Shown: positions 52,092 to 58,519, counted from the stretch's first letter. The stretch is 64,000 nucleotides of DNA from an uncultured Chloroflexia bacterium (GCA_963727315.1 CAVSFE010000002.1:139674-203673); one strand, 5' to 3'. The notes: generated by a model from the sequence alone, not told the origin. Numbers and translations are program-made.

Positions 52092-52527
52092 ATGGTTAAA
52101 ATGGTAACATCCAGTGAGCCCGAGCGGGAATGGTCTATCCGGGAATACCGGGAAGGCGATGAAGCACAGATACTTGAGCTCCGGGGGATCGTACTGAGCG
52201 GCCGCCGCGACCTGACATAGTGGAAATGGATGTACCGGGACGGCCCGGAGCGCTTTGTTAATGGTTGCCGAGGCAAAGCAGAGGATAATCGGGTCAATGG
52301 CGGTTATACTCGTGCCTTTAAAAGTCGGGGACCAGGTCACCCGAGGCAGCCACGGTATTGATTTGATGGTCCACCCTGACTACCGGCGCCTGGGCATAAT
52401 GAAAAGGTTAGGTACGAAGTGCGGTCCATGCCTTAACGTCCGTATACTTGACCCAAATATTCCCAAGGAGCTCGCTACAAATCCCGCCAACTGGTATTAC
52501 GTGGTGGGCGATGGCGACTCGCTATAA
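52092..52527 (+). pseudogene. GNAT-family acetyltransferase remnant
   Basis: IREYREGDEAQILEL, in-frame TAG, WKWMY, frameshift, then DLMVHPDYRRLG (GNAT motif A) and a truncated end. Confidence 0.7.
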
Positions 52528-52594
52528 CAGTCTCGAGAATGCCTCTAAAGTCACGTTGCCGAAGTGATATAATTGTGCCATACTATTCAATGGT

Positions 52595-54064
52595 ATGAAC
52601 AGGGCTTTAAAACAAGACGCCTCTTACGGCGAAGTCGACAGGTCCGACCCCAAGAAAAACATCCGGGAAAAAGTCAATCTGCTGCTGCCGGACGGCCTGA
52701 TGATCGTGCTGGCCGCCATCATGGCGCCCATCGTGCTGGTGCCTATTTTCGTGACGTTGCCGGCGACCGTTGATACATCGTTAAAGTTCGCCGATTATTT
52801 TATCCTAGGCATATTTATCATCGAGTATCTCCTTAAAACCATCTTCGCCCGGGACGTCGTGAAACGCATCCTCAGTCCTTGGCACCTCCTCGACCTGGTG
52901 ATTATCGTTTTACCCCTGTTAAGCCTCCTGCCCGTCTTCGCCACCGACTTCGGCCTTTCTTTCCCGGTCCTGCGGCTAATACGGATATTACGGATATTCG
53001 CCCTGGGCGGCCGGGCCATCGACAGAAAAAGAGAGATGGCCGTCCCCGGACACGAAGCCGCCGCCGCGTTAAAACCTACCTCGGAAATACAGGTAATGGA
53101 CAGGAACCTGGAAAGCGTGTATAAAGACGTCCAGTACGGCCGGCTGCGGGATTTTCTTACCAACTCGACGAACACATGGATAGATATTTCCGGCATCACC
53201 GAGGGCGACTTCGAACGACTGAGCAATATCTTCGGTATACCGCGCATCCTCCTCGAAAGCGAGCTCGTCGACGAGGCTTTTCCGAGGATCGACTACTTTG
53301 AAAATTCGTCGATGATATTCGCGCGGGTCGCCAACATGAAGACCACTGATAAGAGCCCCGGGAAAATTATCGTGGACCGCGATGGCTTCCTCGTTATCTG
53401 CCAGGGGCAGAACATCATGACGCTTTCGAAAACCCATACCAGAATCTTCGACCTGATACTGGAAAAGGCCAAGAAAATCCATACCGCCCAGGAGCCGCTG
53501 GTCGTGACGATTTTATATACTCTCCTGAGGCACATACTCGATAAAGATAAACAGATTGTCACCTCCCTGGAGCAGGAGCTCGTCAGCCTGGAAAGCATAC
53601 CTTTCAAAGACAGCCCTTCCAATTTCCTGGAGGTGACTTTCAACCTTCGCAAAGAGGTCAACCAGGTCGTACCGTCGCTGATGCACCTCAAGGAAATCAT
53701 CTCCGAGATTTCCTCCAAGCGTGTGCCGCTGGAAGGATTCAGCGAACGACATGAGAAAGTCTTCGATATTCTGATGGACGAGGCATCCTACCTGCATGAA
53801 AACGCCGTGAACGTCAGGGACAATTTAGAGTCGATGATAGACCTTTATATCAACACGACTTCCCACCAGATGAATAAAGTGATGCGGCTCATCGCCGTGC
53901 TGACCTGCCTGGGGATAATCCCCGCCATCATACTGGGCGCCCTGGGTACGAACGTGTCCGGGAACCCCTGGGGCATTCAGCTCTGGCAGGTCTTTACGGT
54001 CCCCCTGCTGTTGATGCTGGTGCTGGCATGGATTTTCTACCGGCTCGGCTGGCTGAAATGGTAA
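52595..54064 (+). CDS. CorA-family divalent cation transporter with N-terminal voltage-sensor-like (S1-S4) domain
   Basis: S2 FIIEYLLK, S3 WHLLDL, S4 LRLIRILRI; CorA core WIDI, PRID, NEV-like HQMNKVMRL, GTN, PWG, two C-terminal TMs. Confidence 0.85.
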   Translation: MNRALKQDASYGEVDRSDPKKNIREKVNLLLPDGLMIVLAAIMAPIVLVPIFVTLPATVDTSLKFADYFILGIFIIEYLLKTIFARDVVKRILSPWHLLDLVIIVLPLLSLLPVFATDFGLSFPVLRLIRILRIFALGGRAIDRKREMAVPGHEAAAALKPTSEIQVMDRNLESVYKDVQYGRLRDFLTNSTNTWIDISGITEGDFERLSNIFGIPRILLESELVDEAFPRIDYFENSSMIFARVANMKTTDKSPGKIIVDRDGFLVICQGQNIMTLSKTHTRIFDLILEKAKKIHTAQEPLVVTILYTLLRHILDKDKQIVTSLEQELVSLESIPFKDSPSNFLEVTFNLRKEVNQVVPSLMHLKEIISEISSKRVPLEGFSERHEKVFDILMDEASYLHENAVNVRDNLESMIDLYINTTSHQMNKVMRLIAVLTCLGIIPAIILGALGTNVSGNPWGIQLWQVFTVPLLLMLVLAWIFYRLGWLKW

Positions 54065-54076
54065 TGCCAAATAAAA

Positions 54077-54110
54077 TCCCCTCCCCCGGTTAGCGAGCCG
54101 GGGGAGGGGA
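54077..54110. terminator. hairpin between convergent genes (probably bidirectional terminator)
   Basis: TCCCCTCCCCCGG-8 nt-CCGGGGGAGGGGA. Confidence 0.65.
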
Positions 54111-54133: not shown

Positions 54134-57100
54134 TTAATGCACGGTTACCGCCGCGCCCAGGGTCTCTCCCTTGATATCCGGCTGGTAGTAGGAATAAGCG
54201 GTTGAAAGCACGCCCTTGGCCTTCACCGGGTACAGCGCCCTGACCTGGAAATCGAAGGCAATCCGCTGGCCCGGCTTCATGTTCTCCACGTAGAAGATGA
54301 CCTTTCGGCCGGCTATGTCATATCGCTTGATATTCGGCATGCGCAGTATCATGGCGTCGATGGAACCGGTCACCGCGGCGAAGCCCGTGGGCACCGAGAC
54401 ATCGAGCACAATCATGCCGGCTTCGGAGATATCCAGTTCGGGCAGAGGATTAAACTCGAGAGCCACCGACACTTTAACGAGGTCATCGACGGCAACCTCA
54501 GTGGTATCGTAGCCCACGTCTATATTGAGCATCTGCGCCGCCGGCGTTTCATCCGTAGCGGGCAGATTATAACGGCGCACTACCTGGGCGATAGCATCGC
54601 CCTGCCCTGCCACGATCATTTCAACATCGGCGTTAACCGGCACCGGCACAATCTGCAGGACATCGAAGTTGTCCTTATCTATTTTCAATGTCCTATCGAT
54701 GCCATCGCCCTTCAGCGTCACCGTAAGGTCTACATCCGACCGCGCCCCGGTGGCATACTCGATAAGCGCCTGCAGGGCGACCACGGTATCCTGCGTGGAG
54801 CCGAAGCCGCCATTAGCATTGCGTTTCGAGACGAGCCACTGCGAAGCCCGGGAAGCGTTCATGGCGTCGCCGTGCCCGACCAGCGCCAGGGCGGCGTAGG
54901 CGGTGTTCTCGATGTCCGAACACTGATTGATTTCCGGTCGGAACGGCGCTACCATCATCGGTCCGCCCTCTTTCCCCTGCGGTTCGGGGAGGGGCTCGAT
55001 GATTTCATCGCTGCCCCAGTGCAGGCCGTTCTCGTCCTCTTTCGCCAGCGACATCAGTTTGTTATAAGCTTCTTCCTTTAATGGGCTATCGGCTAGCTCC
55101 AGGGCGTAAGCCGTAATGGCGACCGCATAGGGGTCGGTCATCCCATCCAGCTTGGCCTCGAGGTACCTGACCGCCCGGCCGCCGGCGTCCGTTTCGCCGG
55201 CTTCGAGGAGGGCGATGGCCACAAAGGCGGTGAGGGCGTCCTTGCCCTTCAGCCCGCCCAGCATCTCCTGGTGGCAGACAAAGCCGACCTGGTCGAAAGA
55301 GCCGTCGGCGTTTTGATAAGAAGTAATCCAGTCGGCGGCCTGATTCAGCACACTTTCATCGATATAGATAAGCCCCTTCGCCTGGGCGAAGCACTTCAGC
55401 ACGAAGGCCGTCAGCCACAGGCTGCCGGACTCGTCGCTCATCCCGAAGGCGCTGAAGCTGCCGTCCGTGCGGCGGTAAGTCAGCTCGCGCTGATAGCCGG
55501 TGACCATGAGCTTTTCCGCCTTAGCCATGATTTCCGGCTTAATCTGGCCGCTCGATTGCAGGTACTTGGTGATATAGACGTCCGGGGCGAAGACAATCAT
55601 GTTCTGCTCGCCGCAGCCGAAGGGCATCTGCAGGAGGGCATCCAGCCCGTCGATGGTCTGCGTCAGGAAGCTGGAGGTCACGGCAACATAGACCCGGCCC
55701 GAGTCCTCGACCACCTCGCCGGGGATGGAAGTGTCGATAGATTCCGTGATGCCGCCTTTAAGAGTAATATTATCGATAATTTCCCGCGGCACGCCTTCAG
55801 GCTCGATGATGATGTTCTTGACCACAGCGTCCGCCGCCTCAGCGCTGCGGGCGCTTATCCTGACGTCCTTAATGCCGAGGCCGACGGGACGTATCGTGAA
55901 CTGCGCCGACCCGATATCGTTGGCGGCGATATTAATAGTCTGCGTCGGGCTATCCAGCAGCTCGAACCAGTCGCCCTCTTCGATATCTACCTGCACATCC
56001 TGAGGCGTATCGAGATAGTTATAGACAGATACGCTCACCGGGAACTCCTCGCCACGAATGGCCGAATAAGGCAGGTCGATAGTCAGGAAGAAAGGCTGGA
56101 ACACCTTGAGGGAAGATTCCGCCACCCCGAGACCCTTGTCCTTAGAGATAGCCACGGCCCGCAACATCCAGGTGGTGATGGAATCCGGCACCGTTACCTG
56201 TTTGGTCACCTGGCCGTCGTCATTGGTCTCGAAGTCATCCCAGAGCCACGTCTCCGGGAAGAACTGGCGGACACGCTGCACATCGGCCAGCTGGCCGGCG
56301 TCTTCATGGGCAGCAGGGGGAATTAATATAGTCGGGGTTGGGGCGGGCGTAGCCACGGGCAAGATCAGTCCCCCGGCTTTGTCGGGTCCGTTCCACATCC
56401 CGAAGAAATTCGCAATCCTGCTGGCGATGCCGTTTTCCGCTTCATATTCTTTGCTCTGCGGCAATTTCTTATTGGTCATTACCACCACACCGGCGTCCTT
56501 GAAAATATCCTCGGTGCCGGGGACGGTATAGGTGGGGTAAAAAGAGACCTCGTGAACCTCCGCCTGCGGCTCCATGTAAAGCCGCTCCAGCTCATCGAAG
56601 ACCTGCTGGAGGTTGAGGCGGTTCTCCGCCAGAATAAACACCGATTTATCGACGGCGGCAATGCCGACCCTGGCCTGGCCGTCCGTCTGGATATTCAAAT
56701 CGATGTTTTCGCCGAGCGTGGCCTCGTCCTGGCTAAACCCGGCATCCACCGAAAGCGGATAGACCTCCTCCACCTGGAACGGGAGATAGTCAGCCGCCAC
56801 TTCGGCGTTAGGCAATATCTGGTAGACCAGCAGCTTCGCCGAGGGCGCCATCAGCGGCGTGACGCTAAAAGAAATGTCCCGGCTGGTGGTATAGTCGGAG
56901 AAGACGACGGCGCCCCGGGAAAGCACTTCGTAGTAAAAGTTCGTGGCGCGGTCGGTAGAATATACTTTGAAGCCGATTTTCTGCCCGATTTTCGCCGTTC
57001 CTTCCGTGGTCTGTTCCAGGTGGATAAAGTTGCCGGAAGGCGAATATGAAGACTGTATCGTCTGCGAGGCATAAGAGTCTCCGGAGCTGGCTTCAATCAT

Positions 57101-58327
57101 CATGGCGATGGCTTCTTCCGGCGGGGCGAGCTCGAGGAGCGCCTTGCCTTTAGATGTATTGACGGTTTTAGTTTCCGTCTTGAAATCCTCGAAATTATCA
57201 TCCATGTAAGTAATGGTCAGGTTTACCCGACTGTCCACCGGCTGATTATCCGGCGTCTCGGTCAGCACCAGGACATTAAAAGGCAGGCCGGGCTTGAAGA
57301 CCGAGCCTTCCGGGATAAGCTGGAGATTCACCGAAGACTGCGCCACGGTAAGCAGTCGGCTGGTCTTTTCGACGTAGCCGGTGGCTTTCTCGGTAACAGT
57401 TATGTCAAGCTGGACGTTGCCCTGCCCGCCGGCAGACGGCGTGCCCGCCACGTATTCGGCGGGCGGCAGCTCAAAATCGGTTTCGCCATCGATTTCTTTC
57501 GTCAGGGTGGCATATTCTTCCCACTGCCCGACGTACCTGGTGGCGACGACGGTCACCTCACCACCGACCGGTTTGCCGAAGCTGTAATTGGCGCTGACGG
57601 TGCCCCGTACCGGCTCGTCCACCAGGAACCACTCCTTAGGCAGGTCGACGGTGACCTCGTACTTGGGCAGGACGTATTCCTCAACGCGCACGTCCAGCTG
57701 GCTGCTGGCTTTATCGGTGACGGCGTTGATTTTCCAGACGCCGAGGTTAGGTTCATCGGAGAGAGGCAGGTCGACGCTGGCCATACCGTAGTCGTCCGTG
57801 TTTACATCAGAGCTAAAGACCTTGATGCCTTTGTAATCGAGGACATCCAGCGTGACCGGCTCGGTGACCGGCTTCAGCTCGGGGTCGAGGGTGAGGACGC
57901 GCATGTGGATGGTCTGCCCAGGCTTATAGATGGGTTTATCGGTCTCGATAAAGACGAGAAAGCTGTTCTCGACATTGATACTGGCTTTATCAGAGAAGGC
58001 GCTGCCCTTGACCTGGATTTCGTACTGGCCGTCGGCAACTTCGGGTATATCAAGAGAAACAGTGCCTTTTCCATCGATAGTCTGTTTAGCGCTGGTAATT
58101 TTCCGGCCGTCCTTGAAAAGGGCGACCTCCACTTTTTCTCTGGTAAGCTCGTCGCCGGCGAAAAGCGCCAGCGAGATGGCCTCGGTGCGGCCGCTGTGCA
58201 GGACTTTGGGCAGGACCGCGATATAGCTGCTGGCCGCCAGCGCGGGCCGACCGCACGAGGGCACCAGCCCGATGACGAACGCCAGCACCATGATGAGCCC
58301 GATGACTTTGAAGATATTTTGTTTCAT
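54134..58327 (-). CDS. alpha-2-macroglobulin/thioester-containing protein (TEP/CD109/C3-like), predicted lipoprotein
   Basis: ETDKPIYKPGQ, EYVLPKYEV, RQFFPETWLW, DSITTW, PFGCGEQNM, WLTAFV, HQEMLGG, GGFGSTQDTVVALQAL; AGGAGG RBS and ATG at 58327; lipobox LVPSC. Confidence 0.93.
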   Translation of the reverse strand: MKQNIFKVIGLIMVLAFVIGLVPSCGRPALAASSYIAVLPKVLHSGRTEAISLALFAGDELTREKVEVALFKDGRKITSAKQTIDGKGTVSLDIPEVADGQYEIQVKGSAFSDKASINVENSFLVFIETDKPIYKPGQTIHMRVLTLDPELKPVTEPVTLDVLDYKGIKVFSSDVNTDDYGMASVDLPLSDEPNLGVWKINAVTDKASSQLDVRVEEYVLPKYEVTVDLPKEWFLVDEPVRGTVSANYSFGKPVGGEVTVVATRYVGQWEEYATLTKEIDGETDFELPPAEYVAGTPSAGGQGNVQLDITVTEKATGYVEKTSRLLTVAQSSVNLQLIPEGSVFKPGLPFNVLVLTETPDNQPVDSRVNLTITYMDDNFEDFKTETKTVNTSKGKALLELAPPEEAIAMMIEASSGDSYASQTIQSSYSPSGNFIHLEQTTEGTAKIGQKIGFKVYSTDRATNFYYEVLSRGAVVFSDYTTSRDISFSVTPLMAPSAKLLVYQILPNAEVAADYLPFQVEEVYPLSVDAGFSQDEATLGENIDLNIQTDGQARVGIAAVDKSVFILAENRLNLQQVFDELERLYMEPQAEVHEVSFYPTYTVPGTEDIFKDAGVVVMTNKKLPQSKEYEAENGIASRIANFFGMWNGPDKAGGLILPVATPAPTPTILIPPAAHEDAGQLADVQRVRQFFPETWLWDDFETNDDGQVTKQVTVPDSITTWMLRAVAISKDKGLGVAESSLKVFQPFFLTIDLPYSAIRGEEFPVSVSVYNYLDTPQDVQVDIEEGDWFELLDSPTQTINIAANDIGSAQFTIRPVGLGIKDVRISARSAEAADAVVKNIIIEPEGVPREIIDNITLKGGITESIDTSIPGEVVEDSGRVYVAVTSSFLTQTIDGLDALLQMPFGCGEQNMIVFAPDVYITKYLQSSGQIKPEIMAKAEKLMVTGYQRELTYRRTDGSFSAFGMSDESGSLWLTAFVLKCFAQAKGLIYIDESVLNQAADWITSYQNADGSFDQVGFVCHQEMLGGLKGKDALTAFVAIALLEAGETDAGGRAVRYLEAKLDGMTDPYAVAITAYALELADSPLKEEAYNKLMSLAKEDENGLHWGSDEIIEPLPEPQGKEGGPMMVAPFRPEINQCSDIENTAYAALALVGHGDAMNASRASQWLVSKRNANGGFGSTQDTVVALQALIEYATGARSDVDLTVTLKGDGIDRTLKIDKDNFDVLQIVPVPVNADVEMIVAGQGDAIAQVVRRYNLPATDETPAAQMLNIDVGYDTTEVAVDDLVKVSVALEFNPLPELDISEAGMIVLDVSVPTGFAAVTGSIDAMILRMPNIKRYDIAGRKVIFYVENMKPGQRIAFDFQVRALYPVKAKGVLSTAYSYYQPDIKGETLGAAVTVH

Positions 58328-58519
58328 AACCCGACCTCCTTGTCCCCTTTTTCCCTGCCACCACAATCTATATAACGTCAGCCGGCAAAAAAAGTTATTG
58401 AGCCCGGAAAATTCCGGGAGGTTGATGGTTAAGCAGCGCCCGCTTTTGTAATATCCGTAGCGCGCTGGTATAATCATGGGTAAATATTTTATTAGCGATA
58501 AGAAAGGAACGAACCGAGC

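Follow-up and report, generated by a model that had tools for sequence, protein, structure and literature searches.

The open reading frame (ORF) at 52595..54064 (+) of a 64,000-nucleotide stretch of DNA from an uncultured Chloroflexia bacterium (GCA_963727315.1 CAVSFE010000002.1:139674-203673; the whole stretch is referred to as the window) is intact and encodes a protein of 489 amino acids in which a voltage-sensor domain (VSD) is fused to a CorA-type channel subunit. As judged from its sequence and predicted structure this protein, VSD-CorA, is a six-helix membrane protein in which a cytoplasmic tether links the VSD to a complete CorA subunit, at the N-terminus of the latter. The best reading, held with moderate confidence, is that it acts as a voltage-regulated CorA-type divalent-cation channel. 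Gating by the membrane potential is the best-supported mode of control, as the sensor's gating charges and charge-transfer centre are strongly conserved family-wide. Database entries give proteins of this kind no more than the label 'CorA family divalent cation transporter' or 'ion transporter', and a full-text literature search gave no description of a VSD-CorA protein, the matches to 'CorA' in voltage-sensor papers being to 'coral'.

Domain architecture and predicted fold

The N-terminal region matches Pfam Ion_trans (PF00520) at residues 36-137 (E 2.9e-9, 36.9 bits; cut-off 25 bits), with profile positions 6-108 of 241 covered, which correspond to S1-S4 alone. The C-terminal region matches Pfam CorA (PF01544) at residues 192-483 over the full length of the profile (positions 3-292 of 292; E 6e-35, 121.4 bits; cut-off 27 bits). 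No hydrophobic S5-P-S6 pore was found after S4, either in the Ion_trans match, which stops at position 108/241, or in the AlphaFold2 (AF2) model of the whole chain, where residues 164-425 form a soluble α/β CorA cytoplasmic domain in place of a P-loop pore. Searching the PDB with the single sequence aligns residues 161-487 with Thermotoga maritima CorA (TmCorA; E 2e-17). With a 22-member family profile both parts are recovered, TmCorA at E 7e-22 and the Cav3.2 VSD at E 1e-14, together with the VSDs of Cav2, Nav1.8, CatSper, NavMs, Kv4 and Ci-VSP. By these profile scores the two-domain match is far above chance level. Both domains occur within about 490 amino acids in 119 of the 120 homologues listed, which lie on separate contigs; the fusion is no assembly artefact, because homologues from independent contigs carry both domains. 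The start and length of the ORF are also common to homologues with 72-89% identity.

An earlier note, made from the sequence alone, had described a voltage sensor with no S5-S6 pore that continues into a CorA cytoplasmic funnel and two transmembrane (TM) helices. This description is borne out. The N-terminal domain matches VSD profiles, with an Ion_trans score above the cut-off and VSD-only matches in the fold and PDB profile searches; the Ion_trans match ends after S4 and the CorA domain is next; and the funnel and the two TM helices are covered by the full-length Pfam match and the AF2 model. The motifs that the note had singled out also lie where it placed them, FIIEYLLK of S2 at residues 74-81, WHLLDL of S3 at residues 96-101, and LRLIRILRI of S4, with arginine at every third residue (R127, R130 and R133), at residues 126-134 (nucleotides 52970-52996). 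The features of the gene are as follows, with the basis of each in brackets; A1 is an alignment of a closer set of family members.

52595..54064 (+): whole gene, VSD-CorA fusion, 489 amino acids (ORF, Pfam, homologue lengths)
52595..52690 (+): cytoplasmic N-terminus with a basic pre-S1 helix, residues 1-32; D18, K20, R24, L31 and P32 conserved (alignment A1; helix 21-30 in AF2)
52691..52750 (+): S1, residues 33-52 (AF2 helix 33-52; Pfam Ion_trans)
52763..52843 (+): S2, residues 57-83; it carries D67 (outer acid), F74 (hydrophobic plug), E77 (inner acid) and K81 (family conservation, A1)
52877..52927 (+): S3, residues 95-111, containing P-W-H-L-L-D, whose D100 completes the charge-transfer centre as its third member (family conservation)
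52964..53014 (+): S4, residues 124-140, with gating charges R127, R130 and R133 and the interfacial motif G138-G139-R140 (family conservation)
53015..53083 (+): cytoplasmic S4 extension and variable tether to CorA, residues 141-163 (identity 0.15, low pLDDT)
53084..53869 (+): CorA cytoplasmic funnel domain and stalk helix, residues 164-425 (Pfam CorA, Foldseek, residue equivalences)
53870..53944 (+): pore helix TM1, residues 426-450, with gate residues M430 and I433 (alignments to TmCorA, A1)
53945..53953 (+): selectivity-filter triplet G451-T452-N453 (aligned to TmCorA G312-M313-N314)
53954..53971 (+): periplasmic loop V-S-G-N-P-W; N457, P458 and W459 invariant (A1, PDB profile alignment)
53981..54043 (+): TM2, residues 463-483, then a C-terminal R483/W486/K488 tail (AF2 helix 463-483, A1)

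The whole-chain AF2 model has a mean confidence score (pLDDT) of 72.7, with about 80-90 in the CorA part and 60-74 in the VSD. It begins with the pre-S1 helix, which is followed by TM helices at residues 33-52, 57-83, 95-111 and 124-149 and a low-confidence segment at 148-160. The CorA α/β domain then leads into a 70-residue stalk/TM1 helix (384-454), a short loop and TM2 (463-483). A Foldseek comparison of the full model with TmCorA structures gives E 2e-16 and TM-scores of 0.65-0.76 (normalised to the target). This whole-protein search is dominated by CorA matches and is uninformative on the VSD, which was consequently modelled separately from an alignment of 17 bacterial and archaeal sequences (pLDDT 73.6). 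Every one of the top 50 PDB matches of the VSD-only model is a VSD, a four-helix antiparallel bundle, the best being NavMs (TM-score 0.66, root mean squared deviation 2.4-2.7 Å, 120 columns); the corresponding E-values of 2e-3 are weak, which is normal for a helical bundle of 131 residues. The predicted topology is self-consistent, in that the basic N-terminus, the S2-S3 loop, the end of S4 and the C-terminus are all cytoplasmic. The chain would thus leave S4 on the side of the membrane where the CorA funnel must sit.

Conservation of the voltage sensor

When the VSD alone was used to query 1.84 billion representative proteins (clusters at 50% identity), 265 hits were obtained. Fifty-eight of the relatives are 430-680 amino acids long and 56 of these also contain CorA, so that at least 56 clusters have the fusion architecture. 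All 58 family representatives match the Ion_trans model, and the residues that define a sensor are their best-conserved positions, at a VSD identity of about 36%. The plug residue F74 is conserved in 58 of 58, D100 in 57, W96 in 54 and E77 in 55, with Asp in two more. Among the S4 charges R127 is kept in 56 representatives, R130 in 55 and R133 in 48, and position 140 is Arg in 50 and Lys in six. Within A1, F74, E77 and all three gating arginines are invariant, and the mean pairwise identity is 0.57 for the VSD, 0.59 for the CorA cytoplasmic domain and 0.70 for the CorA TM region. The pattern of substitution indicates that the gating charges and the charge-transfer centre (F74/E77/D100) are under strong purifying selection over the whole fusion family. 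The VSD is no decaying remnant, since its sensor residues are the most conserved and the domain is as conserved as the CorA domain.

The best sequence and structure matches of the domain are the VSDs of NavMs, NavAb and the Cav3, Cav2 and Nav repeats, with which it shares F-x-x-E-x-x-x-K in S2, P-W-x-x-x-D in S3 and an arginine at every third residue of S4. In those channels the sensor is followed by an S4-S5 linker, S5, a P-loop and S6 in a fourfold assembly, whereas in VSD-CorA the match ends at 108/241. The phosphatase Ci-VSP likewise has a stand-alone VSD without S5-S6, and its VSD structures are matched by the family profile (E 8e-4); the effector in VSD-CorA is however a channel and not a phosphatase.

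The sensor is joined to the CorA part by a 17-residue linker (residues 147-163) with a mean pairwise identity of 0.15 in A1 and a pLDDT below 50 at residues 148-160. The covalent connection between the two domains therefore looks like a flexible tether. This variable and disordered tether, the presence of just three arginines in S4 and a patchy distribution would all fit an S1-S4 domain that no longer senses voltage, and that serves instead to anchor the protein passively in the membrane, to aid its assembly or localisation, or to sense a lipid or ligand, within an ordinary CorA-type channel regulated in some other way. The S1-S4 domains of TRP channels are established non-sensing examples and provide a precedent. 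We nevertheless regard loss of sensing as unlikely. The residues specific to charge transfer (F74, E77, D100, R127, R130 and R133) are the most conserved of the domain (>56 clusters), which disfavours a mere anchor, and the usual Mg2+-sensor pair of CorA is absent (see below), so that another regulator is needed.

The CorA pore and the proposed gating mechanism

For the pore part the closest known systems are the CorA Mg2+/Co2+ channels (TmCorA, PDB 4I0U, 3JCF and 8TMB; Methanocaldococcus jannaschii CorA, 4EV6). At an identity of about 19% to TmCorA, VSD-CorA has the full-length Pfam match, the funnel, stalk and two-TM fold, the gate residues, and the glycine and asparagine of the filter in common with these channels. 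In pairwise and profile alignments M291, L294, D277 and N314 of TmCorA correspond to M430, I433, D416 and N453. The filter triplet at residues 451-453 (nucleotides 53945-53953) falls column-for-column on TmCorA G312-M313-N314 and reads GTN rather than GMN, as the earlier note had stated. The glycine and asparagine are invariant in A1, where the middle residue is Thr or Ser, and the conservation indicates that the pore gate residues and the filter Gly/Asn are under purifying selection. VSD-CorA differs from TmCorA in its N-terminal four-helix VSD, which accounts for 160 extra residues, in the filter, and in the loop behind it, where the acidic F-E-Y-M-P-E-L is replaced by V-S-G-N-P-W (GNPW for the acidic MPEL). 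The protein scores below the cut-off of the corA equivalog model TIGR00383 (87.6 bits against 200.75).

CorA gating is otherwise understood as Mg2+ feedback. A further difference lies in the intersubunit Mg2+-sensor site M1 of TmCorA, formed by D89 and D253, which corresponds to S222 and I392 in the pairwise and profile alignments alike; both columns are non-acidic across the fusion family (58 representatives). In TmCorA the cytoplasmic Mg2+ responsible for closure is bound by these two residues, and Mg2+-dependent closure is abolished in the D253K mutant (PMC12933068).

The middle residue of the filter varies widely across the fusion family, being M in 33 of the 57 members tallied, E in nine, V in six, Q in three, T in two, S in two, and I and L in one each. 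GTN is thus no hallmark of the family and not tied to the VSD; most fusions are GMN, and the GTN and GSN filters are a derived state of certain clades. The maximum-likelihood tree has three clades, one of GEN/GQN/GVN sequences, one of GMN sequences with one Planctomycetota protein, and one of methanogens and Dehalococcoidia. In the last of these VSD-CorA of the window sits in a GTN subclade nested among GSN Dehalococcoidia sequences, and G[ST]N evolved separately in Methanothrix and Methanoregulaceae. At least 18 changes on the tree show how labile the filter has been in evolution. One Methanothrix genome encodes two deeply diverged fusion paralogues, one GTN (clade III) and one GVN (clade I), and the difference between their filters is argued to reflect functional specialisation with the sensor retained. 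The paralogue loci are L024 (G302:C1:2694300-2696700), with an ORF at 521-2062, and, for comparison, L020 at 5899-7437. The GVN paralogue has a longer S4, LRLVRVLPRVLPRVLL.

The source genome, a 1.95-Mb Dehalococcoidales assembly, contains two further CorA genes, both GMN (YGMNVHLPGG and FGMNFLHMPEL). The Thr/Ser filter, the non-acidic loop and these two canonical paralogues suggest a different cation preference for the protein of the window, that is, a cation other than, or additional to, Mg2+. The ZntB and CmaX proteins, with GVN/GIN-type filters, are likewise 2-TM-GxN proteins with a middle residue other than Met and a glycine-rich, non-acidic loop, and the filter loop G-x-N-[IVL]-x-G-x-P is presumably closer to that of ZntB than to the GMNFxxMPEL of CorA. 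Neither of them has a VSD, however, and in sequence the relation to them is very weak (16.3 bits for the ZntB model NF007092, cut-off 292; E 1e-4 for CmaX). Membership of the ZntB group was rejected on this score.

The ZntB-type relatives of CorA are reported to be proton-driven, by Zn2+/H+ co-transport, and Hv1 demonstrates that a VSD without a pore can conduct protons. With these two precedents the VSD itself could be imagined to provide an Hv1-like proton path, or an omega-type cation path, yielding a proton-coupled metal transporter with an outcome like that of ZntB. Such a path is very unlikely here. S1 (DGLMIVLAAIMAPIVLVPIF) lacks the mid-S1 acid, its sole acid being D33 at the cytoplasmic end; S4 (LRLIRILRI) has no Trp and RxWRxxR is absent; and the plug F74 is invariant and accompanied by a complete charge-transfer centre, which marks an occluded sensor that does not conduct. 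The proton-coupled alternative is without specific support in these motifs, and the score against the ZntB model also speaks against it. Identity as an Hv1-like proton channel was rejected, since the Hv1 motifs (mid-S1 Asp and RxWRxxR) are absent, as is the C-terminal coiled coil of Hv1.

Under the favoured reading, voltage regulation of a CorA-type channel, the subunits would form a CorA-like pentamer ringed by five VSDs. Movement of S4 in response to the membrane potential would bias the open/closed equilibrium of the CorA gate, and divalent-cation flux would be regulated by voltage in place of, or in addition to, feedback from cytoplasmic Mg2+. Given the variability of the covalent tether, coupling would most likely occur through contacts rather than through the tether, with the VSD and the G-G-R conserved at the end of S4 touching TM2, the stalk or the cytoplasmic domain/funnel. 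The gating polarity and the ion preference are not deducible from sequence.

Several points weigh against voltage regulation. The confidence of the VSD in the AF2 models is moderate (pLDDT about 60-85), and S4 has merely three arginines in register. The unconserved linker, predicted to be disordered, weakens a simple lever mechanism. The pentamer and the interface between VSD and pore are assumed, the predictions being of single chains, and the loss of D89/D253 rests on alignment, where the neighbouring D391 could compensate. The spread of the fusion is patchy (eight of 301 genomes and five of 138 genera in Dehalococcoidales), as for a dispensable accessory gene, and the lack of conserved neighbours gives no functional hints.

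Voltage sensors are known to drive tetrameric P-loop channels; the few exceptions are VSP (a phosphatase), Hv1 (a proton channel) and SLC9C1 (an exchanger). Both modules of VSD-CorA are of known kinds and the sequences are public; it is their combination, of predicted function, that would constitute a new effector class and a new symmetry for voltage sensors. The nearest parallel is SLC9C1, the sperm Na+/H+ exchanger, in which a VSD without a pore is similarly joined covalently to a non-P-loop transport protein and S4 runs into the cytoplasm toward a regulatory domain. SLC9C1 is a eukaryotic dimeric secondary transporter with its VSD C-terminal to the transport domain and with a cyclic-nucleotide-binding domain, whereas in VSD-CorA the sensor is N-terminal to a presumably pentameric prokaryotic channel. 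SLC9C1 has been called the only known VSD-regulated transporter (PMC10620092).

A wider proposal, offered tentatively from the sequences and models, is that the fusions could represent a widespread class of prokaryotic voltage-gated channels whose pore, pentameric and of a non-P-loop kind, is under the control of a canonical voltage sensor. They would be the first fivefold channel to be coupled to a VSD and, among CorA-type divalent-cation channels, the first with voltage gating, and their labile filter (GMN, GEN, GVN, GQN, GSN or GTN) would be tuned to different metals in energy-limited anaerobes such as methanogens and Dehalococcoidia. A VSD on a CorA pore would, if true, raise the question of how S4 is coupled to a fivefold hydrophobic gate, and would mean that prokaryotes control divalent-metal flux by voltage sensing. 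The apparent replacement of the feedback site would make the family a natural experiment on CorA regulation, and the natural filter variants could inform the selectivity of the GxN motif. The family is experimentally accessible, with constructs that are small and consist of a single gene, and with Methanoculleus formosensis Afa-1 as a host in culture. Assays for CorA are already established in oocytes by two-electrode clamp (PMC12933068) and in planar bilayers (PMC9511408).

Distribution and genomic setting

The fusion is conserved in many methanogens and anaerobic bacteria. It is commoner in the Methanoculleus family, with 19 of 55 genomes including that of the cultured M. formosensis, than in Dehalococcoidales, and was further seen in Methanothrix, Methanoregulaceae, Planctomycetota and Auribacterota. 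No other Ion_trans protein was found in the source genome. In a tree of the CorA domain all 69 fusion CorA domains fall on one side of a branch and four plain CorAs on the other, with weak support (Shimodaira-Hasegawa-like approximate likelihood ratio test, 25), and monophyly of the fusions is not rejected by the approximately unbiased test (p 0.71). The match lists for the CorA domain are saturated by the fusion family itself. With an outgroup as thin as four plain CorAs and weak branch support, these results are no more than consistent with a single origin of the fusion.

One Methanoregulaceae genome has a GSN-type fusion (L017, G303:C1:1818670-1819524) as its sole match to the CorA family model, and there the fusion, instead of being accessory, may act as the main transporter of the CorA type. 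This genome bears on a reading in which the protein is mainly a voltage-to-signal transducer, its CorA pore opened by depolarisation for signalling or as an emergency valve and not for nutrient uptake. Such a role would suit an accessory gene with a labile filter (at least 18 changes) in a genome that already has two canonical CorA genes. It is nonetheless distinctly unlikely, as housekeeping transport fits the Methanoregulaceae case better and there is no conserved partner or effector gene nearby. It would in any event be a sub-case of voltage gating, differing in polarity and purpose only.

Comparison of the ORFs around 15 loci gave no conserved neighbour genes beyond close synteny, and with no conserved partner the VSD-CorA gene looks monocistronic. 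An apparent second CorA gene beside the fusion at L015 was rejected as a spurious ORF without a Pfam hit and without similarity. Upstream of VSD-CorA in the window lie an ABC-2 transporter pair, an FkbM methyltransferase and a GNAT fragment. The last is a 90-amino-acid ORF at 52255-52527 (+) within the 520-nucleotide upstream gap, with sub-threshold matches to GNAT acetyltransferases (profile about 6-53 of 84), and it looks like a truncated acetyltransferase remnant. An extended -10-like element, TGATATAAT, is found by pattern match only at 52565-52573, its end 21 nucleotides upstream of the ATG, and no Shine-Dalgarno sequence is evident before that ATG. The position of the element and the lack of an evident Shine-Dalgarno sequence suggest a short-leader transcript. 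The convergent downstream neighbour at 54134-58477 (-) encodes a 1447-amino-acid protein of the alpha-2-macroglobulin/thioester type, and between the two genes lies one further feature.

54077..54110 (no strand assigned): terminator-like hairpin of 13 bp, rich in G+C, in the interval that separates VSD-CorA from the convergent macroglobulin gene (T-run scored on the minus strand alone)

Among the homologous loci, L008 is a 2437-bp contig binned as Methanotrichaceae that encodes a GTN protein inside the Dehalococcoidia clade, with 60% identity to the protein of the window; it represents either a recent transfer from a bacterium to an archaeon or the mis-binning of a short contig. The homologous loci L012 (match 371-1788) and L019 (match 6001-7417) are interrupted, with open frames of 133 and 247 amino acids respectively, and are possible pseudogenes or assembly frameshifts. 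In M. formosensis two canonical CorA genes lie in tandem (G301:C7:84872-87161), the first, by the genome search, with one in-frame TAG.

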